Part shown: in pieces, positions 2,504 through 54,964 of the stretch | Layout: the number at the start of each line of letters is the position of its first letter | Position numbering within the stretch: position 1 is the first letter of the stretch | From: a virus | Taxonomy: Duplodnaviria > Heunggongvirae > Uroviricota > Caudoviricetes | IMG/VR virus record: IMGVR_UViG_3300009419_001390 | DNA: 64,000 nt | Direction: 5' to 3' (one strand) | The notes under the pieces: model-generated | Told to the model about the DNA's origin: nothing | What the model saw: the letters and a program-made list of their open reading frames with translations, nothing else | Database searches by the model: none | Position numbers and translations under genes: made by a program

Positions 2504-3223
2504 ATGCAAGAAACAATCCTAAGTGAAAAAATTACAATCGTGATCCCTTGCAAGAACGAGGAGAATTACATTGGATACTTGTTATTACATCTACGCAATC
2601 AACTGATTGGTAGTACTAGAATTATTATTGCAGACTGTTCTACAGATAACACTCGAGAAGTGATTCAAAAGTTAAAGGGTAAATTGAATGTTGAAATCAT
2701 TGATGGTGGTCCAGTCAGCCAGGCCAAGAACCGCGGAGCTGCCTTGGTTACCACACCCTACATCTTGTTCATTGATGCTGATGTTCGCTTCTTCAATGTC
2801 AACACGATTCGTGATGCAGTAGCCAAATTGGAATCTAAGAACCTAGATCTACTAGGGCTGAACATCAAATGCTATGACAACGACAAACGTGCCAGCATTG
2901 GCTTTGCTGTGTTCAACGGTATCAATCGCGTTCTAAAACATTTCAGTCCATTTGCTGTGGGCGCATTCATGCTCACACGCAGAGACCGGTTTGAAGAGTA
3001 CGGCGGCTTTCCTGAGCAGATGTCAACTTCTGAAGACTACTTCCTATCTAGATGCTACAGCCCAAAAAAGTTTAGCATACTCAATCACTATTTTGGACAA
3101 GACAGCCGTAGGTTTAAGAAGATGGGCTATTTTGGTATGGCCAAGTACTTGGTCCAGAACTTTGTTAACCGCAACAACAAGAAGTACTGGGACAGTTTGG
3201 ACAACAGCAAATACTGGTCATGA
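2504..3223 (+). CDS. family 2 glycosyltransferase
   Basis: N-terminal ITIVIPCKNEE, DxD-like FIDADV, GT-A fold pattern. Confidence 0.6.
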   Translation: MQETILSEKITIVIPCKNEENYIGYLLLHLRNQLIGSTRIIIADCSTDNTREVIQKLKGKLNVEIIDGGPVSQAKNRGAALVTTPYILFIDADVRFFNVNTIRDAVAKLESKNLDLLGLNIKCYDNDKRASIGFAVFNGINRVLKHFSPFAVGAFMLTRRDRFEEYGGFPEQMSTSEDYFLSRCYSPKKFSILNHYFGQDSRRFKKMGYFGMAKYLVQNFVNRNNKKYWDSLDNSKYWS

Positions 3224-3246
3224 CAGTCGCTTTGGTGCCTTTTTAT

Positions 3247-3276
3247 TTGACATCAGTAGTAACCAGCATATATAAT
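3247..3276 (+). promoter_or_regulatory. sigma70 consensus promoter TTGACA-18-TATAAT
   Basis: perfect hexamers upstream of OMP gene pair. Confidence 0.6.
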
Positions 3277-3322
3277 CCATGTGTTGCGTAACAGCGCACA
3301 TTTTCAAAAAGGAAATTTTCAA

Positions 3323-3880
3323 ATGAAGAAGTTTATCGCATTGGCCGCACTATTGGCCGCAAGCACTGCCTTTGCAGGCGGTTTTGGCTCTGTTGAATAC
3401 AGTGGTCGTGACGGCGTTGATGGTACAGCAGATGCTCGTGCCACCAAGGTAACCATGGGCACAGATATCAATCAACTGTTGAAGGCCGATTTCAGTCTAC
3501 GTCAAAAGACCAACACTGACAACGATCTCAGCGACACACGCCTGGAAGGTGGCCTAACAGCCACGCAACCAATTGGCGGCACTGGGTTCAGCGTGTATGG
3601 TCGTGGTGCAGTGGGTGAGAAGTTCAAGACTTCGGCCAACTATACCTACTACTCAGTGGAGCCAGGCATCAAGTATGCGGTGACTCCGGCACTGAGTGTC
3701 AAAGCAGGCTATCGCTATCGTGCCGCACTAGACAGTGCAAACGCAGACACCACTCGTACATACCGTTTGGGTGCTGAGTATGCACTGACCAAGAACTACT
3801 TTGTTGGCCTAGGCTACGATCAAGTTCGCGGTGACAGCACATACAATGCTACCAACGTCGCTGTTGGTTTCAAGTTCTAA
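3323..3880 (+). CDS. small outer-membrane beta-barrel protein (signal peptide, C-terminal Phe), paralog 1
   Basis: MKKFIALAALLAASTAFA signal peptide; alternating amphipathic strands; terminal VGFKF typical of OMP beta-signal. Confidence 0.55.
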   Translation: MKKFIALAALLAASTAFAGGFGSVEYSGRDGVDGTADARATKVTMGTDINQLLKADFSLRQKTNTDNDLSDTRLEGGLTATQPIGGTGFSVYGRGAVGEKFKTSANYTYYSVEPGIKYAVTPALSVKAGYRYRAALDSANADTTRTYRLGAEYALTKNYFVGLGYDQVRGDSTYNATNVAVGFKF

Positions 3881-3902
3881 TCTAGAACTATTCAACCACA
3901 AC

Positions 3903-3926
3903 AGGGGCCTTGGCCCCTGTTCTTAT
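3903..3926 (+). terminator. rho-independent terminator (AGGGGCC-TTG-GCCCCT + T-rich)
   Basis: hairpin immediately after OMP-1 stop. Confidence 0.5.
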
Positions 3927-3936
3927 AGGAAAACTT

Positions 3937-4494
3937 ATGTTTAATCAATTAAAAAATGTTTTGCTACTACTAGCAATCACCACCGGAGTTGCACAAGCCC
4001 AGACCTTTGCTGGCATCAACAGCATGTTTGGAAAAAGTCCAACTGGCGCAACAGACACAGGATATCAGTTTGTTGTGGGTCATCGCATGGACAACGTTAT
4101 TGTTGATGCCATTGCTGAAACTGTGATTCCAGATGCTACCAAAGTTGCAATCAATCGACTGGAAGGTGGTGCGAGTTTGTTATTGCCCACTGGCACTGTA
4201 ATCACACCCTATGTGCGTACTGCTCTAGGAATCAAAACTGTGGGTGGCAATCAGTTTGCCTACTACAGTGCCGAACCAGGTGTGCGAATGGCCGTTGGAC
4301 CTGGCACTGCTAGATTAGGCTGGAGATATCGCAATGCAGTTGATGCTGACCAATACAATGACAACACACGTGGATGGCGTGCCGTTTATGTGTTGCACAT
4401 GTCCAAGACCTTGGATATCAACTTTGCCTATGAATCTGTTCGTGGTGATGCTAATTACGACGGAGTCATGACAGGCTTCACAGTACGATTTTAA
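3937..4494 (+). CDS. small outer-membrane beta-barrel protein, paralog 2
   Basis: signal peptide LLLLAITTGVAQA; same conserved blocks as 3323..3880 (EPG..A.GP, GWRYR, Y-x-x-VRGD); terminal TVRF. Confidence 0.55.
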   Translation: MFNQLKNVLLLLAITTGVAQAQTFAGINSMFGKSPTGATDTGYQFVVGHRMDNVIVDAIAETVIPDATKVAINRLEGGASLLLPTGTVITPYVRTALGIKTVGGNQFAYYSAEPGVRMAVGPGTARLGWRYRNAVDADQYNDNTRGWRAVYVLHMSKTLDINFAYESVRGDANYDGVMTGFTVRF

Positions 4495-4509
4495 TTGTGC
4501 CAAAAAGTC

Positions 4510-4537
4510 TTGACGAGCTTTTTTGTTCGTGTATAAT
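4510..4537 (+). promoter_or_regulatory. sigma70-like promoter TTGACG-16-TATAAT
   Basis: upstream of ahpC. Confidence 0.5.
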
Positions 4538-4572
4538 ATACACATTAATTCATTGTTATAGAGGAAATCAAA

Positions 4573-5112
4573 ATGAAAACAGTTGGACACAAGTTAGAAA
4601 AATTCGCAGTCACGGGTGTCAAGCCTGGACAGCCAGAAGATGCGTTCTTCGAAATTACAGATGAGAGCTTTCCCGGCAAGTGGAAGGTAATTGTTTACTA
4701 TCCAAAAGACTTCACATTCGTTTGCCCTACAGAAATTGTAGCCTACGACAAACTAACAGGTGACTTTGCCGACCGTGATGCAGTCCTGCTTACAGGTTCA
4801 ACAGACAATGAGTTCTGTAAAGTCAGCTGGCAAACAGCTCATGCTGATTTGAAGAAAATCACACACAACCAGTTCGCTGACACACAACGTGGCGAGTTGA
4901 GTCTTATCGATCAATTAGGAGTTTTCTATGCTCCAGCAGGTGCCGCACTTCGCGCAACATTCATCGTTGATCCAGACAACGTTATCCAACACGTTACAGT
5001 CAACAACTTGAACGTAGGCCGTAGCCCAGAAGAAACACTTCGTGTTCTTGATGCGTTACAAACTGGCGAGCTGTGTGCATGTAACCGTACAGTTGGCGGT
5101 GAAACACTTTAA
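4573..5112 (+). CDS. ahpC: peroxiredoxin (AhpC/TSA family, 2-Cys type)
   Basis: FTFVCPTEI peroxidatic-Cys motif; resolving Cys near C-terminus (ELCAC); length 179 aa. Confidence 0.8.
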   Translation: MKTVGHKLEKFAVTGVKPGQPEDAFFEITDESFPGKWKVIVYYPKDFTFVCPTEIVAYDKLTGDFADRDAVLLTGSTDNEFCKVSWQTAHADLKKITHNQFADTQRGELSLIDQLGVFYAPAGAALRATFIVDPDNVIQHVTVNNLNVGRSPEETLRVLDALQTGELCACNRTVGGETL

Positions 5113-5291
5113 TGTTAGAAATATTTCAACGAGGTGTTGAAACATTGCGACAGCCCGATCGTAATCCTAGATGTTATGAAATGACAGAACAGGAACGATT
5201 GGATCGTATTCGCGAGTGGAACAATCGTAATGTTTGGAACACCCCAGAACTTGCTGAAGAAGATGAACTGAACTTCTATCAAGGAGCATAG
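5112..5291 (+). CDS. hypothetical 59-aa protein, translationally coupled (TAATG)
   Basis: start overlaps ahpC stop; stop abuts next ATG; not in ORF track (<60 aa). Confidence 0.4.
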   Translation: MLEIFQRGVETLRQPDRNPRCYEMTEQERLDRIREWNNRNVWNTPELAEEDELNFYQGA

Positions 5292-5504
5292 ATGAAACAA
5301 CAATTACTTAGTGCATTGGAAGCAAACTTTTCAGCACAACTGACCAAGCACAAAATGAATGTGGAGATCATGTTGAACAACCCTATGGCCATTCATGATC
5401 ACACTGACTGGATGGCGGCTGTGGAAACTGAAATTGCGCACATTGCGGAATATGAAGATAAACTAGAAGTGTTGCAAAAATACTTTGTTTCTGGAAAATA
5501 TTAA
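5292..5504 (+). CDS. hypothetical 70-aa protein
   Basis: ORF track; packed between ahpC and ahpD. Confidence 0.45.
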   Translation: MKQQLLSALEANFSAQLTKHKMNVEIMLNNPMAIHDHTDWMAAVETEIAHIAEYEDKLEVLQKYFVSGKY

Positions 5505-5505
5505 A

Positions 5506-6015
5506 ATGAATTTTATTGAATCAGTAAAAGGTGCGTTACCAGACTACGCCAAAGATACAAAATTAAATCTAGATGCGGTGTTACTGCGTAGCACACTAGA
5601 CGCAGATGTGGCCATGGGATGTGCCGTAGCCGCACTGGCCGCAACAGGCAATGGCAAAATTCTGTCAGTAATTTTAGCAGATGCTCCTGTACATGCAGAG
5701 TCAGCAATGACAGCCGCCAGCATCATGGCACAGAACAACGTATGGTATCCCTATGTTGAAATGGCAGATGATGCCGCACTCAAAGGTTTGCCAGCACAGT
5801 TACGCATGAATGCTATTGCAAGTCATGGTGGAACTACCAAAGCAAACTTTGAAGCATTCTCGTTGGCCGCAAGTATTGTGGGCAAGTGTCACTTCTGTGT
5901 TAAGGCACACTATGACACATTGAAGAACTCAGAAGGCTACACAGTGGAACAACTTCGTGACATTGGGCGCATTGCATCAGTTATGAATTCAGTTGCTAAA
6001 GTTCTTAACAGTTAA
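5506..6015 (+). CDS. ahpD: alkylhydroperoxidase AhpD-like (carboxymuconolactone decarboxylase family)
   Basis: GKCHFCVKAH matches the AhpD catalytic signature C-H-[YF]-C-x-x-x-H; about 170 aa. Confidence 0.6.
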   Translation: MNFIESVKGALPDYAKDTKLNLDAVLLRSTLDADVAMGCAVAALAATGNGKILSVILADAPVHAESAMTAASIMAQNNVWYPYVEMADDAALKGLPAQLRMNAIASHGGTTKANFEAFSLAASIVGKCHFCVKAHYDTLKNSEGYTVEQLRDIGRIASVMNSVAKVLNS

Positions 6016-6026
6016 TTGGAGACAAA

Positions 6027-6446
6027 ATGTTAGAATGTTTGATACTCGGAGATTCAATAGCAGTGGGCACATCACAGGCTAGACCTGAGTGTGTTAGTTA
6101 CAGCAAAGGCGGATGGAATAGTTGGCAATGGAACAAGGACTATCTTTCCAAAGCATCCAACCAACCCTCCAAAACAATTATCATCAGTCTAGGTGCTAAT
6201 GATCATAAAGGTGTCAAGACAGAAGCAGAACTACGTAAAATGCGCGAAGCGATCAAAGGAGATCGTGTGTACTGGATTGATCCAGGACAGGATCGTAAAC
6301 CTATTCCACACGATGCAATCGTTCGGATTGCTAAAGAGTACGGGGATACAATCATTGCTCGACCTAAAAATCACATGAGTGCTGACGGTGTACATCCTAC
6401 TGGTACAGGATACAAAATAATTGCTGAGCAAACAAAAGGCAAGTGA
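6027..6446 (+). CDS. SGNH/GDSL-family hydrolase
   Basis: N-terminal LILGDSIAVG (GDS block I) and C-terminal SADGVHPT (DxxH block V). Confidence 0.55.
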   Translation: MLECLILGDSIAVGTSQARPECVSYSKGGWNSWQWNKDYLSKASNQPSKTIIISLGANDHKGVKTEAELRKMREAIKGDRVYWIDPGQDRKPIPHDAIVRIAKEYGDTIIARPKNHMSADGVHPTGTGYKIIAEQTKGK

Positions 6447-6640
6447 TGCAAGTGAGAGTAAAAGACAATCCAGAAGACATTGGCCGATGTGGTTGTGGTC
6501 GTAGTCCAACCGGCAAGTGTTGTGGCTGGCATGGTCTCACCGAAGATGAATACAAGAATGAACTTGAGCTGTACGAATACAAAAAGCAAGCACAGGGTCT
6601 TTGGAATGACAGTTGCACCAGTGGCAGATCTGAACAGTAG
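6446..6640 (+). CDS. small Cys-rich protein (CGCG...CCGWHG)
   Basis: TGATG coupling to upstream gene; six Cys in 64 aa. Confidence 0.4.
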   Translation: MQVRVKDNPEDIGRCGCGRSPTGKCCGWHGLTEDEYKNELELYEYKKQAQGLWNDSCTSGRSEQ

Positions 6641-6758
6641 GCCTCGTGAATTTCACTAGCCAAGATTAATGATTTCCTGGATATGATTTGACCATTTTTT
6701 GTCGTATAATCTTCATACATACTAAGACATCAACAGTATGTCATTCAAGGAGAAAATT

Positions 6759-6833
6759 ATGAAATGGTCTACACCAACTGCACAAGACATGCGTTTCGGC
6801 TTCGAAATTACCATGTACATTGCAAATCGTTAA
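6759..6833 (+). CDS. pqqA: PqqA-like peptide (coenzyme PQQ precursor), MKWSTPTAQDMRFGFEITMYIANR
   Basis: 24 aa; AAGGAG SD; conserved E-x-x-x-Y core and about 60 percent identity to Pseudomonas/Acinetobacter PqqA ([23 protein letters not shown]) from memory; own terminator. Confidence 0.6.
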   Translation: MKWSTPTAQDMRFGFEITMYIANR

Positions 6834-6853
6834 TTTGTTAACAAAAGTACTAG

Positions 6854-6884
6854 AAAAAACCCTTGTTGATCAAGGGTTTTTTTG
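6854..6884 (+). terminator. rho-independent terminator (AACCCTT-loop-AAGGGTT + T7)
   Basis: follows pqqA-like gene. Confidence 0.6.
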
Positions 6885-6897
6885 TGGCCAAAAACGG

Positions 6898-6926
6898 TTG
6901 ACCTAAATGGCTCATTTTGTTATACT
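6898..6926 (+). promoter_or_regulatory. conserved early promoter box cggTTGACC-17-TATACT (copy 1 of 3)
   Basis: 33/36 nt identical to copy at 51005..51033, related copy at 20594..20622. Confidence 0.6.
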
Positions 6927-6953: not shown

Positions 6954-7322
6954 ATGAAAGCATTTTTAGAAATTACAGAATGGGCAGATACCCAGTTCAA
7001 CTGCAATCATGTGTACTGGATGGATGATGCCCGAAACAAGATGCATGCCTATGCTCGTTTTGGTAATCCCAAAGACACTCAGACATTCCGAGCACCAATT
7101 CAAATTGACACCCGCGGACGCAAGTTTGTGGAAGTGCGCAATGACATCTACAACTGGACTGATACAAAAGTTGAGGTCAGTGCCAACCCAACCTGGACCA
7201 TTGAGGGTAGCAAAGGCGCCAAATATGTTGTAGAAAAAGATGGTTCAGTGTATAATTGCACTTGTGCTGGTTTCAAATTCCGCGGTGCTTGCCGCCACAT
7301 CGAAGAGGTTCAAAATGCTTAA
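6954..7322 (+). CDS. SWIM zinc-finger domain protein
   Basis: C-terminal NCTCAGFKFRGACRH fits CxCx(n)CxH; AAGGAAA SD. Confidence 0.45.
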   Translation: MKAFLEITEWADTQFNCNHVYWMDDARNKMHAYARFGNPKDTQTFRAPIQIDTRGRKFVEVRNDIYNWTDTKVEVSANPTWTIEGSKGAKYVVEKDGSVYNCTCAGFKFRGACRHIEEVQNA

Positions 7323-31548: not shown

Positions 31549-34500
31549 ATGGCAAAAAAGCAACTTAGGAAGTATAGTTTCACCCCCGGAGCAGCCGGTG
31601 TTGGTTATGTAGTGGTCGAAGGAAAACAAGACCAATACAAGCTACTGCTGATAACCAACGTGACTCGAGGAGTTATTCTTTACAACTTTGCCGACACACA
31701 GAACACAGCGGTTACTGTAACATACAAACCCGGTGGTATTAAAACTACAACGGCAGATTCATCTGTTGTAACCTACGACGATGTTCCAATTGGCAGCGGT
31801 GTAGTAGGCACTGCGGTTATACAAAATACACCAGGCCAAGGTGAAACCACAATTAGATTTGACGGAATAAGCACCACAGGACACAGCGCCAATGATGAAC
31901 TGAGTATCTTCGTTGAAGAAGCATATCAAATGGTTCGTGCATGGAATGACTTTGGCACTGACGCAATTGAACGTCAGCGTGTGGCCAACCCCCAATCACA
32001 GATTGACGCTGACTTTGAATACGGACTACAAGCCACCAAATGGCAAGGCTTTGAGCTTGTTCAGCAGTATCCTAGTGTGTACGAAATTCCTGGTTCAGAA
32101 TTAAACATCAGTGACATCACATCAGACAACGCTATTCCAAGTTTGATCACTGTTACCACCAGCAGCGGTCATGGCATGAACATTAACGATCCAATTACTG
32201 TACAAGGCATTGACGTCAATACTACTGGATTTACTCGAGCACAAGGAACAACTATTCTTGCTAGTAATACTGGTGTTACTTCGTTTACTTACTATGCCAA
32301 AGGACAAGTCACTCCACTGGCAGGCGCAGGAACCAGTATCATAAGTCCTCGTATAATCATAAGAAAAGGTGGTTTTTTCTCTGGTGCCAATCTGTCAGTC
32401 TCTCAGTTTACTAGCAACAACGGAACTCCAAGTTCAGTAACAATTACCTTTGGCTCCTCGCATGGTTTTGTGCCAGGCATGCCATTGCTGATTGGTGGTG
32501 ATCCAGCATTCAACTCAAATCAATTTACAAATTTGATTGGGTCATATTATGCCAACTCAATTCCTACTCCAAGCACTGTGGAATTTACTGCTCGCGGACT
32601 GGTAAACATTCCTAGCACAGTGGCCCCAAACGGCAGCAACTTGTTAACAGTCTACACACGCAACGACGGATTCTTTACACATCGTCCTGGAGATGGTGGT
32701 GTGCTCATGGGCACAGCAAGTGCCATACATGGTGCAAGTACAACTCGTCAAAGCAAAAAATACTTTCGGTATCAGTCTGGTAAGGGCTTGTTGTACACCA
32801 CTGGTGTACTGTTTGCGCCAAACTATGACATTACCAGTATTGTAATTACCAACCCACCTGCACAAGGTGCAGGTTCTGCAATCCTGCGTATCACCACAGC
32901 TATTCCACACGGTTGCCAAATTGGTGCAGTTGTGCGAGTTACTGGTTGCGTGGATTCTGCAACTTCGTCTGGATTTAATGCACAATACACTGTTCTAAGT
33001 GTAGAAAGCGATGTACAACTTAATGTGCTTGCCTCTCAGTTGATCACTGGATCAGCTGCCGATATCGCAGGCGTGCCTAAACTGTATATGTATCAGTGGA
33101 ATGGTGCATGTATTCGTACAGGCCCACATGATGACGCCAATGGTATGTTCTTTGAATATGACGGACAAAACTTCAACGTTGTCAAGCGTACTAGTACGCT
33201 TCAATTGGCAGGTACTGTGACATTTACACCAGATTCAAATGCACTAACTGGTATTGGATCATTGTGGACCAATCAATTGAAAATTGGTGATCGTGTGGTC
33301 ATCAAAGGCATGGTTCACAAGGTAAACTTTATTACTTCTGCAACTAGTATTTCTGTTACTCCAGACTATCGTGGTGCAACAACAACCAGTGGTAACTACA
33401 TGTTCAAAGTGCAAGAAGTACGTGTGAAGCAAGCAGACTTTAACTACGATCCTGCAGACGGCACAGGACCGTCAGGTTATAAGATGGATCCTAACCACAT
33501 GCAGATGATTGGTATTCAGTTTACCTGGTACGGTGCTGGTTTTATGGATTTTATGGTACGTGGCAGCGATGGTAATTTTATTATCCTGCACCGCATGAAA
33601 CAAAACAACGTGAACGTAACTGCTTCTATGCGTTCAGCCAACTTACCAGTTCGCTATGAAGTTAACAATGAAGCATCCAATGGTGTGGTACAGTTGAAAA
33701 CCATTGGTGGACTTGATCCTGCTTCCAGTAGTTGTGCAGTAAGTGATGCTAGTTTCTTGCCAGACACTGGTTTTATCTACATGAACTATGAGTTAATTAG
33801 ATATGCCAGCATCAATCGCAACGATTTACCATTTCCAATTCTCAACAGCTTGACTCGTTGTGCGGCGGCCAACGTGTTTATTGGAGGCTCTTATAGAACC
33901 ATCCACGGTCGACCAGTTCCGCAATCCCATGCTTCAGGATCGGGTATAGAACTAGTAAGTTTAACAGCCAGTCCAAACATGAGTCACTGGGGTAGTTCAT
34001 ATATCATGGACGGCGGTTTTGATCTAGATCGTGGTTATGCGTTCTCGTATACTAGAGCGTCAACACCAATTACTTCTACACAAAGCTCAGCATTTGGTAT
34101 TAGGCTTGCCCCTAGTGCGTCCAACGGATTGGTTGGAGACTTGGGTGTGCGTGAATTGCTTAACCGTGCTCAATTGTTGCTACAAAACATTGACGTCACA
34201 GTGGGCAATGCCTCAGTGACTGATGGTGTGCGTAGTGCAGTTCAAGCTAATTGTGTAATTGAAGCTAACTCTGCTATTCTTGTACAGGGAATTTTGAATC
34301 CCAGCAATTATTCAAACAACGAAACCTGGACTGTGTTAAACAAAACAGCCACTGGTAACCAGCCTAGTTTTACACAAATTGCAGAAGTTCCTAGTTTCAG
34401 TTCTGGCACATCTGCAGCACCGGGCGAAAAAATCTTTGAATTTATTGCAAGTCCAGGACAATTGAATCAATTGGATTTGACAGGAATCAAGGAATTGACG

Positions 34501-34647
34501 CAGAGTGCTGTGGGCGGACGTGGTACGTTTCCAAATGGATCTGACAGCTTGTACATCACTCTAGCACTTTATCCAACTGGTACGCAACCACCTAGAATCA
34601 TGGGAAATGTGAGTTTGACGCTACGATGGAACGAAGCGCAGGCCTAA
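31549..34647 (+). CDS. large structural protein (1032 aa), baseplate or fibre component
   Basis: position in fibre module; upstream ATAAATT + TGGAG. Confidence 0.5.
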   Translation: MAKKQLRKYSFTPGAAGVGYVVVEGKQDQYKLLLITNVTRGVILYNFADTQNTAVTVTYKPGGIKTTTADSSVVTYDDVPIGSGVVGTAVIQNTPGQGETTIRFDGISTTGHSANDELSIFVEEAYQMVRAWNDFGTDAIERQRVANPQSQIDADFEYGLQATKWQGFELVQQYPSVYEIPGSELNISDITSDNAIPSLITVTTSSGHGMNINDPITVQGIDVNTTGFTRAQGTTILASNTGVTSFTYYAKGQVTPLAGAGTSIISPRIIIRKGGFFSGANLSVSQFTSNNGTPSSVTITFGSSHGFVPGMPLLIGGDPAFNSNQFTNLIGSYYANSIPTPSTVEFTARGLVNIPSTVAPNGSNLLTVYTRNDGFFTHRPGDGGVLMGTASAIHGASTTRQSKKYFRYQSGKGLLYTTGVLFAPNYDITSIVITNPPAQGAGSAILRITTAIPHGCQIGAVVRVTGCVDSATSSGFNAQYTVLSVESDVQLNVLASQLITGSAADIAGVPKLYMYQWNGACIRTGPHDDANGMFFEYDGQNFNVVKRTSTLQLAGTVTFTPDSNALTGIGSLWTNQLKIGDRVVIKGMVHKVNFITSATSISVTPDYRGATTTSGNYMFKVQEVRVKQADFNYDPADGTGPSGYKMDPNHMQMIGIQFTWYGAGFMDFMVRGSDGNFIILHRMKQNNVNVTASMRSANLPVRYEVNNEASNGVVQLKTIGGLDPASSSCAVSDASFLPDTGFIYMNYELIRYASINRNDLPFPILNSLTRCAAANVFIGGSYRTIHGRPVPQSHASGSGIELVSLTASPNMSHWGSSYIMDGGFDLDRGYAFSYTRASTPITSTQSSAFGIRLAPSASNGLVGDLGVRELLNRAQLLLQNIDVTVGNASVTDGVRSAVQANCVIEANSAILVQGILNPSNYSNNETWTVLNKTATGNQPSFTQIAEVPSFSSGTSAAPGEKIFEFIASPGQLNQLDLTGIKELTQSAVGGRGTFPNGSDSLYITLALYPTGTQPPRIMGNVSLTLRWNEAQA

Positions 34648-47697: not shown

Positions 47698-47915
47698 GAT
47701 TCAAACTAGACATTCCTGCTAACCCTGTTCAAGGGGATACCACAGCATGGAAACCAGTATTCTTACTGTTCCCAAAACAAATTGAAAATCAAATTGTTTG
47801 GCTTGAGACCGTGAAGTATCGTAAAATATACATGATCAAACAACGTCCTACCAAAGCCGGCCCTGTGCTTGGCGGTGCGTGGGAACATGAATGGAAGTTA
47901 CCGGAGAACGTATGA
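47694..47915 (+). CDS. hypothetical protein
   Basis: ATGA coupling both ends. Confidence 0.4.
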   Translation: MRFKLDIPANPVQGDTTAWKPVFLLFPKQIENQIVWLETVKYRKIYMIKQRPTKAGPVLGGAWEHEWKLPENV

Positions 47916-48829
47916 AAGAATTGTGGGTAGAAAAATACCGTCCCAAGACCATGGGCGAATATGTGTTCATTGATGACACACAGCGTGATCAAGTTGCGGC
48001 TTGGGTCAAAGATGGACACATCCCACATTTGTTGCTGAGTGGAGGTCCTGGCACTGGCAAGACCACACTAGCACGTATGCTGATCAATGAGCTCAAGATT
48101 GACGAATACGATGTGATGCAGATCAATGCCAGTAACGAAACCAAGGTTGAGATCATGCGTGACAAGGTACTTGGCTTTGCAAGTACCATGCCGTTTGGTG
48201 AGTTCAAAGTTATCCTGTTAGACGAGGCAGACTATCTAAGTCCCAACTCACAGGCATTGTTGCGTAATGCAATGGAAACATATCACGCCAGTGTGCGTTT
48301 TATATTCACTTGCAATGCGCCACACAAGATTATTCCTGCACTGCATTCACGGTGCCAGGGTTTTCATATTGCCAAACAGGATCATACAGAGTTTACAGCT
48401 AGAGTGGCCACTGTGTTGGTAACAGAAGGCATTGATTTTGATATTGACACACTGGACAGTTATGTCAAAGCAACATATCCTGATCTGCGTAAATGTTTGA
48501 ATCTGGTGCAATTGAACGGACAAGATGGCGCTCTCAAGAAACCACGTGAAGGTGACAAGTCTGTAAGTGACTGGAAACTTGACACTGTGGAACTGTTCAA
48601 ATCTGGCAAAATTCGCGAAGCACGTCAATTGCTATGCACACAAGCGGCTCCAGAAGAAATGGAAGATGTATTCCGTTGGATGTATGACAACGTCGACATC
48701 TGGGGCAAAACACCAGAACAACAAGACTCTGCTATCTTAATCATTCGCAAAGGTTTGGTCAACCATACCATGTGTGCTGATTCTGAAATCAATTTGAGTG
48801 CTACAATAATTGAGCTTACACAACTTTAA
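47912..48829 (+). CDS. sliding-clamp loader AAA+ subunit (T4 gp44 / RFC small subunit-like)
   Basis: Walker A GGPGTGKTT, Walker B ILLDEAD, SRC motif (HSRCQGF). Confidence 0.75.
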   Translation: MKELWVEKYRPKTMGEYVFIDDTQRDQVAAWVKDGHIPHLLLSGGPGTGKTTLARMLINELKIDEYDVMQINASNETKVEIMRDKVLGFASTMPFGEFKVILLDEADYLSPNSQALLRNAMETYHASVRFIFTCNAPHKIIPALHSRCQGFHIAKQDHTEFTARVATVLVTEGIDFDIDTLDSYVKATYPDLRKCLNLVQLNGQDGALKKPREGDKSVSDWKLDTVELFKSGKIREARQLLCTQAAPEEMEDVFRWMYDNVDIWGKTPEQQDSAILIIRKGLVNHTMCADSEINLSATIIELTQL

Positions 48830-49938
48830 TGCAAGACTTTGAAATACTTGAACCTTTCCCTGGTCCTGAAAGCAAGATGTCTTTTTTGCTGGATTGGGAG
48901 CTCACTCTCAAGTGTAACCTAGATTGTTCCTACTGCGGCGATGGTCATGACAACAGCACCAAACATCCACCTGTTGCGGAATGTCTAGAAACCATTGACT
49001 TTATGTACAAGTACGTGGATCTCTATATGCAACATAGAATTCGTGGCTTGCAAAGAGTGGTTCTAAATGTGTATGGCGGAGAAAGTCTGCATCATCCAGA
49101 TATTGTCCAGGTGCTAGAACAGGTACGTGCTCGATACCAACCTTATCGAGACCGTTGGAATCTGTGTATAACCACCACAACCAATGCCATTGTTAGTTCA
49201 GCCAAGCTGGAAAAAATCATTCCATTGATTGATGAATTTACAGTAAGCTATCATACAGAATCCACAGACAAGCAAAAAGATCTGTTTAGAAAAAATATAC
49301 TTCAAATCAAAGCCGCTGGCAAAGATATAAAATGTGTGGTGCTGATGCATCCACAAGGCGAATTATTTGATGATGCTCAGCACATGGTCAGCTGGCTGGA
49401 AAAAAATCAAGTTAGACTATTGCCGCGTCAATTGGACCATCAAGAACCTGAAAAATACACTTACAAAGAGCACCAAGTGGTATGGTTTGATAAATTATAC
49501 AACAAAAGCAGTTACGGAGTTGATGTTCAATTGCCTGCAGGAGATACGGATCTAACGCAGACTGGACGAAGCTGTTGTGGTGGCAAACAGCTTTGTGGGG
49601 ATAATAATTTTACCCAACGTCACAGTTTTGTAAACAATGTTTTCACTGGCTGGAGTTGTTCAGTCAACTGGTTCTTTTTATTTGTCAAACAGGTAACAGG
49701 ACATATATACACCAATAGAGATTGTCAGATGAATCTTGAAGGAACTGTGGGTCCAATTGGGCATTTAGATCGCACCCAACAACTGCTGGAAACTCTGGAA
49801 CAACAATTGACTACTGGCACTGTTCCAGTTATTACTTGTGCTAAAAAAATCTGCTATTGTGGATTGTGTGCGCCCAAAGCACAAACCAAAGATCAGTTTG
49901 TAGAAATGTTCAAAAAATATCAAGGAGTAAAAACGTGA
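48829..49938 (+). CDS. radical SAM enzyme with Cys-rich C-terminal (SPASM/twitch-like) region
   Basis: CNLDCSYC (CxxxCxxC) and GGE(S) motif; C-terminal SCCGGKQLC...CAKKICYCGLC. Confidence 0.6.
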   Translation: MQDFEILEPFPGPESKMSFLLDWELTLKCNLDCSYCGDGHDNSTKHPPVAECLETIDFMYKYVDLYMQHRIRGLQRVVLNVYGGESLHHPDIVQVLEQVRARYQPYRDRWNLCITTTTNAIVSSAKLEKIIPLIDEFTVSYHTESTDKQKDLFRKNILQIKAAGKDIKCVVLMHPQGELFDDAQHMVSWLEKNQVRLLPRQLDHQEPEKYTYKEHQVVWFDKLYNKSSYGVDVQLPAGDTDLTQTGRSCCGGKQLCGDNNFTQRHSFVNNVFTGWSCSVNWFFLFVKQVTGHIYTNRDCQMNLEGTVGPIGHLDRTQQLLETLEQQLTTGTVPVITCAKKICYCGLCAPKAQTKDQFVEMFKKYQGVKT

Positions 49939-53029: not shown

Positions 53030-54964
53030 ATGGGCAAAATCATCGGTATCGATCTGGGTACCACAAACTCGTGTGTTGCCGTAATGGAAGGCAACGTTCC
53101 AAAAGTAATCGAAAACAGCGAAGGCGCACGTACTACCCCTAGTATTGTAGCATACGCCAATGACGAAGTCTTGGTTGGTGCAAGTGCAAAACGTCAGGCT
53201 GTGACCAATTCAAAGAACACCATCTACGCCGCCAAGCGTCTGATTGGTCGTAAGTTCAAAGAAGACGCTGTGCAGAAAGACATCGATATGATGCCTTTCA
53301 AAATTGTTGAAGCTAAAAATGGTGATGCTTGGATCAGCGCCAACAACAGCGAACTAGCACCACCGCAAATCTCAGCTGAGGTATTGCGTAAAATGAAACA
53401 AACTGCTGAGGCATACCTTGGCACAGAAGTAACCCAAGCAGTTATCACAGTTCCTGCTTACTTCAATGACTCACAACGTCAAGCAACCAAAGACGCAGGT
53501 AAAATTGCAGGCCTAGAAGTGTTGCGTATCATCAATGAACCAACAGCGGCGGCTCTTGCTTATGGCATGGACAAAGCCACCAAGAAGGATGCCAAGATTA
53601 TTGTTTATGATCTAGGTGGCGGCACATTTGACGTATCGGTCATTGAAATTGCCAACGTGGATGGTGACAAACAGTTTGAAGTTCTTGCTACCAATGGTGA
53701 CACATTCTTGGGCGGTGAAGACTTTGACCAACGCATCATGGACTACTTGGTTGAAGAGTTCCAAAAAGAATCAGGTGTTGATCTAAGCAAGGACACACTG
53801 GCACTGCAACGTCTAAAGGACAGCGCAGAAAAGGCCAAGATTGAACTGTCTAGCAACACACAAACAGAAATCAACTTGCCTTATATCACAGCTGATGCAA
53901 GCGGTCCCAAGCACATGGCAATCAAACTAAGTCGTAGCAAGCTGGAAGGCTTGGTAACAGACTTGGTAGAACGTTCAATTGAACCATGCCGCATTGCTCT
54001 CAAGGATGCAGGCCTAACTACTGCCGACATTGACGACATTATCCTTGTTGGTGGACAAACACGCATGCCCATGGTACAAGGCTACGTGGAAAGTTTCTTT
54101 GGCAAGGCACCACGCAAAGACGTGAACCCAGGCGAAGCAGTGGCCGCGGGTGCGGCTATCCAGGGTGCTGTGTTGGCTGGAGACAAAACGGATGTTCTAC
54201 TCCTAGATGTCACACCACTCTCACTGGGTATCGAAACGCAAGGTGGAATTATGGCCAAGGTTATTACCAAGAACACAACCATTCCTACCAAGCAAACACA
54301 AGTGTTCTCCACAGCCGAGGACAATCAACCTGCGGTAACTATCAAGGTACATCAAGGTGAACGTGAAATGGCTCAGCACAACAAACTGTTGGGCGAGTTC
54401 AACTTAGAAGGTATTCCACCTGCCGCACGTGGCACACCGCAGATTGAAGTTACATTTGATGTGGACGTAAACGGTATCCTCAAGGTAAGTGCCAAAGACA
54501 AAGTCACAGGCAAGAGCAACAACATTACTATCAAGGCCAATTCAGGTCTGACAGAAGCCGAAATTGCACAGATGGTTGCGGATGCAGAAGCTAATGCCGA
54601 AGCTGACAAGAAGCAACGTGAACTGGTTGAGACTCGAAATGCGGCTGAACATCAAGTGTGGGGAGTTGAGAAAAATCTCAAGGAGCACGGTGACAAACTA
54701 TCTGAAGAAGAGCGCGAAGCAATTAAAACTGCCTTGCACGATTTCAAGAAAGTGCTGTCAGATGAAACAGATCCAGACAAGATCAATGAAGCTCTGCAGG
54801 CATTTGTACCAAAAGCCATGCCATTGTTTAACCTAGCCGGTCAAGCCGAAGAGGAAAAACAAAAGGCTGATGCTGAAGAAGTTAAATCCAAGAAGGAAGG
54901 CAAAGACGATAATGTAGTTGATGCTGAATTTACGGAAGTCAAAAAAGACGAAGAGTCTAAATAA
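53030..54964 (+). CDS. dnaK: molecular chaperone DnaK (Hsp70)
   Basis: [36 protein letters not shown] and full-length Hsp70 architecture ending in Glu/Lys-rich tail. Confidence 0.9.

Follow-up and report, generated by a model that had tools for sequence, protein, structure and literature searches.

A stand-alone pqqA cassette in a probable large myovirus, a candidate phage supply of PQQ precursor peptide to its host

Background

Bacteria turn the small peptide PqqA into the cofactor PQQ, the Glu and Tyr of its motif becoming PQQ itself, and it is the PQQ-dependent XoxF/MxaF dehydrogenases that drive the oxidation of methanol by OM43, LD28 and allied betaproteobacteria of marine and lake waters. 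A functional analogy for a phage copy of such a peptide is offered by cyanophages, where psbA re-supplies a fast-consumed host component and the pho-box-controlled pstS keeps a site for the host regulator. The likeness is one of function only: pathway and hosts differ, and what is carried here is a substrate peptide, not an enzyme or a transporter.

Viral PqqA has been described in the Lake Baikal viral population VP_266 (Coutinho et al. 2020, PMC7678222), and virus-encoded pqqA is listed in reservoir-sediment viromes by a 2026 study (PMC13188868), which overturns the view, voiced in the initial annotation of the DNA studied here, that phage pqqA was undescribed. VP_266 resembles our locus in that pqqA sits on a virus, in its case one predicted to infect methylotrophic betaproteobacteria, and was read as a PQQ-boosting auxiliary gene; it differs in also encoding a methanol dehydrogenase, which our locus does not accompany (PMC7678222). 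Where the two papers deal with pqqA they report its presence, without promoter, regulation, prevalence or cultured phages.

Two further groups of relatives are relevant. Methylophilaceae carry 3-12 pqqA copies per genome and a single pqqBCDE (Beck et al. 2014, PMC4109929), and the orphan copies of Methylophilaceae and Burkholderiales share with our locus both the gene family and the arrangement as a free-standing unit, made up of operator, promoter, short ORF and strong hairpin and lacking a neighbouring pqqB. Our copy differs in being phage-borne, and its nearest relative is an operon-linked Comamonadaceae PqqA (22/24 identical residues), not the Methylophilaceae variant (14/24). The second group consists of cultured methylophages, which, as described below, also have a stand-alone pqqA of 23-24 codons; their peptides are 59-71% identical to ours, and they belong to other lineages with pqqA at other genome locations (in Venkman and MEP301 it lies on the strand opposite to its neighbours). 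We found no mention of pqqA in the Melnitz and Venkman papers.

Here we analyse a 64,000-nucleotide stretch of viral DNA (hereafter the window) and propose, with a probability of roughly 0.7, that it derives from a large myovirus carrying a complete, host-derived pqqA cassette (operator, promoter, ribosome-binding site, ORF and terminator) that would supply precursor peptide to the PqqBCDE of the host. Compared with the published work that we found, the prevalence of viral pqqA, its unannotated presence in cultured methylophages and an operator shared by hosts and phages are new.

Results and discussion

A PqqA-family peptide gene with its own expression signals

Translation confirmed the 24-codon ORF with a PqqA-type core that the initial annotation had pointed out: Glu16 and Tyr20 form the E-x3-Y motif within an FGFEITMY context, and the length of 24 amino acids agrees with that of PqqA peptides (about 20-40 aa, with a conserved Glu-x3-Tyr). 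Both PqqA profiles, suggested earlier as a check, matched the peptide full-length, PF08042 (Pfam) with 35.2 bits (E = 1.2e-8; cutoff 21.1) and TIGR02107 with 36.9 bits (E = 2.2e-9; cutoff 20). Such E-values (1e-8 to 2e-9 per protein) are beyond chance even with the several thousand short ORFs of a 64-kb sequence. Judged by these profile matches, the ORF encodes a genuine member of the PqqA family (Table 1). A sequence search of the PDB with the peptide gave no match. We rejected a longer reading from the ATG at 6738 in favour of a start at 6759, since the upstream ATG has no ribosome-binding site and the homologues begin with MKW or MW.

Table 1 Features of the pqqA cassette (positions in the window)
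Feature	Position	Strand	Evidence
Operator box 1, 17-bp palindrome CTCGTGAATTTCACTAG	6643..6659		19.5 bits, bacterial-trained matrix
Operator box 2, degenerate, TTAATGATTTCCTGGAT	6666..6682		2.6 bits, rank 11 in the window; weak alone
-10 hexamer TATAAT of the pqqA promoter	6705..6710	+	direct reading; position conserved in related viral cassettes
5'-UTR hairpin ACAUACU...AGUAUGU, tentative	6717..6741	+	7-bp stem, -4.7 kcal/mol, z = -0.4
Shine-Dalgarno AAGGAG, 6 nt before ATG	6747..6752	+	direct reading; AGGAG conserved in cassette alignment
pqqA, 24-codon PQQ precursor peptide MKWSTPTAQDMRFGFEITMYIANR	6759..6833	+	PF08042 and TIGR02107 above curated cutoffs
Intrinsic terminator, 13-bp stem, 5-nt loop, T-run (U7)	6853..6884	+	folding, -17.4 kcal/mol, z = -2.8

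The signals first seen around the ORF, i.e., a consensus Shine-Dalgarno sequence, an own TATAAT element and an intrinsic terminator directly downstream, were all recovered, the -10 element standing without a canonical -35. Most of the related viral cassettes in the alignment have TATAAT, TACAAT or TACACT at the -10 position. No canonical -35 was present at 16-18 nt from this hexamer (a TTGACC at 6688-6693 is only 11 nt away), and for this reason the promoter scanner did not call the promoter; our own call is defined by the -10 hexamer and its conservation only. The terminator (stem arms 6853-6865 and 6871-6883) has the expected G+C-containing stem-loop followed by a U-run, and was missed by the terminator scanner because its A-run and T-run pair with each other. 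Hairpins downstream of pqqA are general, with a mean z of -2.3 in viral copies (among the matches listed) and of -3.9 in bacterial ones. The tentative 5'-UTR hairpin was discarded as a defining part of the cassette, its z-score in the window being not significant alone, and across loci there is a modest trend: the 5'-UTRs of 113 viral cassettes (among the matches listed) fold with a mean z of -1.07 relative to shuffles, vs -0.02 for a control region.

Directly 3' of the pqqA terminator lies a near-consensus sigma-70 promoter (6898-6926, + strand; TTGACC, 17-nt spacing, TATACT, and TG before the -10) that precedes a SWIM-finger gene (6954-7322); a similar TTGACC occupies the same place in the related viral contig L102.

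Viral pqqA in cultured phages and metagenomes

The initial annotation had also proposed to look for the peptide in other phages, and it turned out to be widespread. A tblastn search of 50,697 phage records recovered pqqA-type ORFs in nine cultured Methylophilales phage genomes, i.e., Melnitz (four genomes, 71% identity), P19250A, Venkman, MEP301, MEP401 and MEP402, and the gene was unannotated in all five of the cultured methylophage records inspected. On IMG/VR contigs we searched with degenerate DNA patterns. The FGFE[IV]TMY pattern matched at least 120 contigs, and the window-type C-terminus DMRFGFEITMYIAN also at least 120, many of them 100-365 kb long and eight shared with the first set, so that both scans together yield at least 230 distinct viral contigs with a stand-alone pqqA. 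Every complete match among those listed is a PqqA ORF of 21-26 codons, or of 22-26 codons with the FGFE[IV]TMY pattern, three loci being cut at the 5' side by the contig edge. The Pseudomonas/Acinetobacter-type core RIGFEVTMY was found in only two viral contigs. Within the phage lineage of the window, gene callers had called pqqA in only one of six metagenome contigs. Owing to its length of only about 72 nt the gene is skipped by gene callers, and catalogues of viral metabolic genes consequently undercount it.

The surroundings of the gene in the cultured phages are diverse. In Melnitz (MZ577097.1) pqqA occupies 76134-76205 between hypothetical genes and a tRNA-Leu, overlain by an opposite-strand hypothetical CDS (MelnitzEXVC044M_152) that is probably a mis-call. 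In P19250A a gene with a diguanylate cyclase/phosphodiesterase annotation lies just upstream of it, and an orphan pqqA of Methylophilus rhizosphaerae has an 802-aa GGDEF/EAL protein encoded behind it; this shared neighbour may be a trace of the host locus that yielded the phage copy.

Viral pqqA is under purifying selection like the bacterial copies. Unique viral ORFs (among the matches listed) gave a pS of 0.58-0.67 and a pN of 0.09-0.21, i.e., a pN/pS of 0.15-0.32, and bacterial copies gave 0.18-0.21; after removal of the eight codons fixed by the search pattern, the ratios were 0.25-0.54 in viruses (among the matches listed) vs 0.31 in bacteria. The similarity of these ratios indicates that the peptide is kept in viruses about as strongly as in bacteria.

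These data bear on the alternative that survives best, although we regard it as unlikely, namely that pqqA is a neutral hitchhiker, i.e., recently acquired host DNA in a hypervariable island that plays no role in infection. The gene indeed sits at the edge of a variable island, the window's 2522-6669 being replaced by other content in L102, and its neighbours vary widely among viral loci. However, a recent and neutral arrival agrees poorly with selection equal to that on bacterial copies and with synonymous sites near saturation (pS about 0.55-0.67), with the spread of pqqA over phages of unrelated types (35-44 kb isolates, the myovirus Melnitz of 141 kb and contigs of more than 200 kb), or with the retention of operator, Shine-Dalgarno sequence and terminator while the surrounding non-coding sequence diverged.

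Stand-alone pqqA and a distant radical-SAM gene

The absence of pqqB/C/D/E from the window, noted at the outset, was upheld by tblastn with the PqqB/C/D/E proteins of the Albidiferax pqqABCDE operon (NCBIfam-verified with 421, 327, 106 and 522 bits, respectively), which returned noise only (best E = 0.067); the window's pqqA is not adjacent to a pqqBCDE operon. Likewise, none of these genes was found in the flanks of 234 distinct viral pqqA loci (122 and 120 loci, eight shared; among the matches listed). The window has no ORF of methanol-dehydrogenase size besides a full-length DnaK. Lack of pqqBCDE does not disqualify the gene, since 58 bacterial copies, each followed by more than 1.5 kb of sequence, are likewise orphans without pqqB and since Methylophilaceae serve their several copies with one pqqBCDE (PMC4109929).

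One gene could be thought to supply a maturase. A radical-SAM protein is encoded at 48829-49938 (+ strand), directly after the clamp loader, with a CX3CX2C motif, a Cys-rich SPASM/twitch-like C-terminus and 27% identity to the core of Methylophaga PqqE. It matched generic radical-SAM core models at about 25 bits and several peptide-maturase families weakly, and it gave no match to the PqqE model TIGR02109 at E <= 0.001 (cutoff 381 bits; the true PqqE scores 522). No homologue was detected in the 50,697 isolated phage records, pqqA carriers included, or in the flanks of viral pqqA loci (among the matches listed). We therefore rejected it as a phage PqqE, there being neither a PqqE-model match nor co-occurrence with pqqA elsewhere.

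The same protein is the main support for the idea that the peptide, instead of being converted to PQQ by host enzymes, serves as substrate of a phage enzyme making another product, or as a decoy for host PqqD/PqqE. Its motif, its Cys-rich C-terminus, its resemblance to the PqqE core and its weak matches to peptide-maturase families fit such a role, but its failure against the PqqE model, its distance of 42 kb from pqqA and the lack of homologues in isolated phages and viral pqqA flanks speak against it. Moreover, the window encodes no PqqD-like protein, and the viral peptides exactly mirror host PqqA variants, as would be expected if host enzymes used them. We consider another product or a decoy peptide quite improbable, and retain supply of precursor to the host pathway as the preferred reading.

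A Fur-box-like operator upstream of pqqA

Box 1 belongs to a Fur-box-like family, CT[AC]ATGA-WWW-TCAT[GT]AG, that is common to the upstream regions of bacterial and viral pqqA and found at the same position in both. About 7-10 nt after the full box a half-site often follows, again upstream of bacterial and viral pqqA alike; in the window this is box 2, with an intact left half-site that overlaps the expected -35 region. The succession of full box and half box recurs in the pqqA promoters of Albidiferax, Rhodoferax and Methylopumilus and in viral relatives. The motif TTAATGATT, considered as the shared element, was dropped, as it corresponds to the degenerate second box and the strong site is the one at 6643-6659.

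The matrix used for scoring was built from 47 bacterial pqqA-upstream sites alone. Box 1 is its top site in the whole 64-kb window, the runner-up reaching 10.2 bits. Among the matches listed, 79% of 117 viral upstream regions exceeded the 95th percentile of the controls, and in the second (window-type) viral set 69% of the matches listed exceeded the 99th. In the cultured methylophages the operator scored 19.4 bits in Melnitz, 14.4 in Venkman, 9.3 in P19250A and 6.8 in MEP301. The best match to the Fur consensus was also enriched upstream of pqqA in comparison with control windows of the same loci (p = 2e-17 for viral and 2e-20 for bacterial loci). We take the Fur-box consensus to be the AT-rich palindrome GATAATGATAATCATTATC and its core TAATGATAATCATTA, which the operator core matches in the same dyad register. 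The consensus of the operator family, CTAATGAWWWTCATTAG, shares this core and its best instances match 14-16/19 positions of the Fur consensus, whereas the window site matches the E. coli Fur consensus at only about 9-11/19, despite its high score with the lineage matrix.

Across 852 kb of bacterial loci, 65 sites scored at least 14 bits, of which 62 precede a pattern-type pqqA and one a GTG-start pqqA. The remaining two, a small sample, precede tonB (TonB_C, E = 1.4e-16; operator at L129 6370-6386, tonB being divergent from pqqA) and hemP (E = 6.6e-16; operator at L171 331-347), both on contigs of bacterial MAGs. As Fur regulons classically include the iron-uptake genes tonB and hemP, a Fur-family protein is the most economical reading for the candidate regulator of the pqqA operator, a reading drawn from these two non-pqqA sites only, and their position suggests that pqqA belongs to an iron-responsive regulon of these bacteria. 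Among the papers searched, we found none linking pqqA with a Fur box, or iron status with PQQ synthesis; in the account of PMC11317620, orphan pqqA copies respond to metal availability. We tentatively postulate, at less than even odds, that pqqA and with it PQQ output belong to a Fur-type iron regulon of Methylophilaceae and Comamonadaceae, and that phages repeatedly took the whole metal-responsive cassette, so that infected cells would make the phage-encoded precursor under the host's own iron-status signal.

A conserved operator might also be the functional element itself, in place of the peptide: the many copies of a Fur-type box on a replicating phage genome could titrate out the regulator of the host and thereby lift the repression of its iron regulon. 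That no other site of this type in the window scores as high as 6643-6659, and that most viral cassettes (among the matches listed) have the operator conserved, agrees with this, but the ORF is under purifying selection at the protein level, MEP402 retains the ORF without a recognisable box, and one or two sites per genome make a weak decoy, so we give titration very little credence and return to the peptide as the functional product.

Genome context

Nearly all ORFs of the window lie on one strand and its GC content is uniform (42-47%). The ORF at 31549-34647 codes for a structural protein of the virion (phrog_5838, E = 5e-214) that shares about 44% identity with T4-like cyanophage proteins, two ORFs of 2277 and 1908 aa match tail, baseplate and virion-structural families, and the clamp loader (47891-48829) has its closest relative, 56% identical, in the 287-kb Pseudomonas jumbo phage PA5oct. 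The window thus belongs to a large and probably jumbo myovirus of mosaic affinities. A megablast of positions 1-25000 against isolated phages gave no match. Independent metagenomes have at least 14 contigs of the same phage lineage, including one of 115 kb. In three of these independent contigs (L243, L244 and L246) the PqqA peptide is identical; in L243 and L244 pqqA and the 120 nt upstream are identical to the window as well, and a further two contigs show 3 nt differences within the ORF. In relatives, the region from tmRNA to pqqA lies deep inside viral contigs of 148-166 kb. Taken together, the virion and tail proteins, the jumbo-phage-like clamp loader, the uniform GC and the internal position in relatives place pqqA in a real phage genome and not in a host flank or contamination.

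The least credible alternative, that the left window end is host chromosome beside an integrated element and pqqA an ordinary bacterial orphan, could draw on the tmRNA gene at 24-310 (tmRNA genes being common integration sites) and on host-like genes between it and pqqA (OMPs, AhpC/AhpD and GT2), but fails against the uniform GC and strand bias, the phage replication genes directly after pqqA (ligase at 7240, MazG), the small same-strand ORFs that continue upstream of the tmRNA in L243 and L244, the deep internal position of this region in relatives and the tmRNA-like sequence carried by 43 of 120 viral pqqA loci (among the matches listed).

Several neighbouring genes deserve description in their own right. 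The tmRNA gene (+ strand) is of the permuted two-piece type (Rfam RF04321, 97.3 bits, E = 1e-17) and was not reported by ARAGORN; the tmRNA-like sequences of the window-type viral loci are found near pqqA, in L067 and L073 at 0.2-0.9 kb upstream. The hypervariable island (2522-6669) has a counterpart in L102 (2545-5087) that differs in length and genes, and its flanks are 73-87% nucleotide-identical to that contig, with a metallophosphoesterase on the left and pqqA, the SWIM gene and the ligase on the right. Within the island, upstream of pqqA, a peroxiredoxin AhpC (4573-5112) and an AhpD-family alkylhydroperoxidase (5485-6015; both + strand; Pfam, NCBIfam) form a pair that resembles an oxidative-stress module and recurs in 5 of 120 related viral loci (among the matches listed). 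Two adjacent small proteins (3281-3880 and 3910-4494, + strand) resemble outer-membrane beta-barrels; the first matches Pfam OMP_b-brl and has homologues in 17 of 120 related viral loci (among the matches listed), and the second has a signal-peptide-like N-terminus and no family match. Far downstream, at 53030-54964 (+ strand), a full-length Hsp70/DnaK is encoded (Pfam HSP70, 842 bits), and DnaK homologues flank four related viral pqqA loci (among the matches listed).

Host and proposed role

The peptide itself offers a clue to the host. It is identical to Albidiferax PqqA at 22/24 positions and to that of Rhodoferax or related Burkholderiales at 21/24, vs 14/24 for the common Methylophilaceae variant, and the MRFGFE[IV]TMY type as such is found mainly in Methylophilaceae, Methylophaga and other Burkholderiales. 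Similarly, the peptide of P19250A, a phage of LD28, is the common Methylophilaceae variant, found without change in Ca. Methylopumilus (L174). Phage-encoded peptides thus follow the variants of the hosts, which fits the use of phage peptides by host PqqD/PqqE. For the window, the peptide type suggests a Comamonadaceae-like host, and with it the presence of pqqBCDE in that host. The 44% GC of the window is compatible with such a host, as PA5oct-type phages also lie far below their hosts in GC. A tblastn of the DnaK against phage records was uninformative on this point, the top matches being probably bacterial contamination in those records. A methylotrophic or pseudomonad-like host had been suggested initially: a link of such phages with methylotrophs is borne out by the nine cultured Methylophilales phages, but the pseudomonad-like part is not, given the betaproteobacterial type of the peptide and the near absence of RIGFEVTMY from viral contigs.

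The original proposal of an auxiliary metabolic gene remains the best explanation of family match, phage context and occurrence in nine cultured methylophages, and from these lines of sequence evidence the following course may be envisaged. The source of the cassette would be a betaproteobacterial host (order Burkholderiales as GTDB defines it, Comamonadaceae- or Methylophilaceae-like), from which the phage captured it. During infection the cassette would be transcribed by host RNA polymerase, its peptide bound by host PqqD, Glu16 and Tyr20 cross-linked by host PqqE, and the cross-linked peptide matured to PQQ by host PqqB/C plus a protease. The phage copy could in this way maintain or increase the PQQ available to periplasmic quinoprotein dehydrogenases (XoxF/MxaF for methanol, and those for alcohol and glucose), so that energy would still be generated as the expression of host genes declines. 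Less certainly, the operator would be bound by a host Fur-type regulator and the phage copy follow the iron-status logic of the host.

Why a phage would carry the precursor alone can be understood from stoichiometry, as one PqqA peptide is consumed per PQQ. As cited in PMC11317620, PqqA availability was reported to be rate-determining in Methylovorus MP688, a member of Methylophilaceae; together with the one-to-one consumption, this implies that an additional phage copy would sustain or raise PQQ, and with the multiplied pqqA copies of the hosts it makes precursor supply a plausible lever. Counting against it, the same paper cites pqqA as dispensable in Methylorubrum extorquens AM1, where the orphan copies were not examined.

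Conclusions

A phage gene for the consumable precursor alone suggests that infected cells are limited by their supply of PqqA, and the Fur-box-like operator common to hosts and phages suggests that PQQ synthesis is linked to iron status. Cultured pairs of pqqA-carrying phages and their hosts exist (Melnitz or Venkman with OM43 strain H5P1), which makes the idea directly testable. If the tentative iron-regulon proposal is true, infection would be coupled to the control that metals exert over the oxidation of methanol and alcohols, and perhaps also to the acquisition of metals if PQQ plays a part in it.
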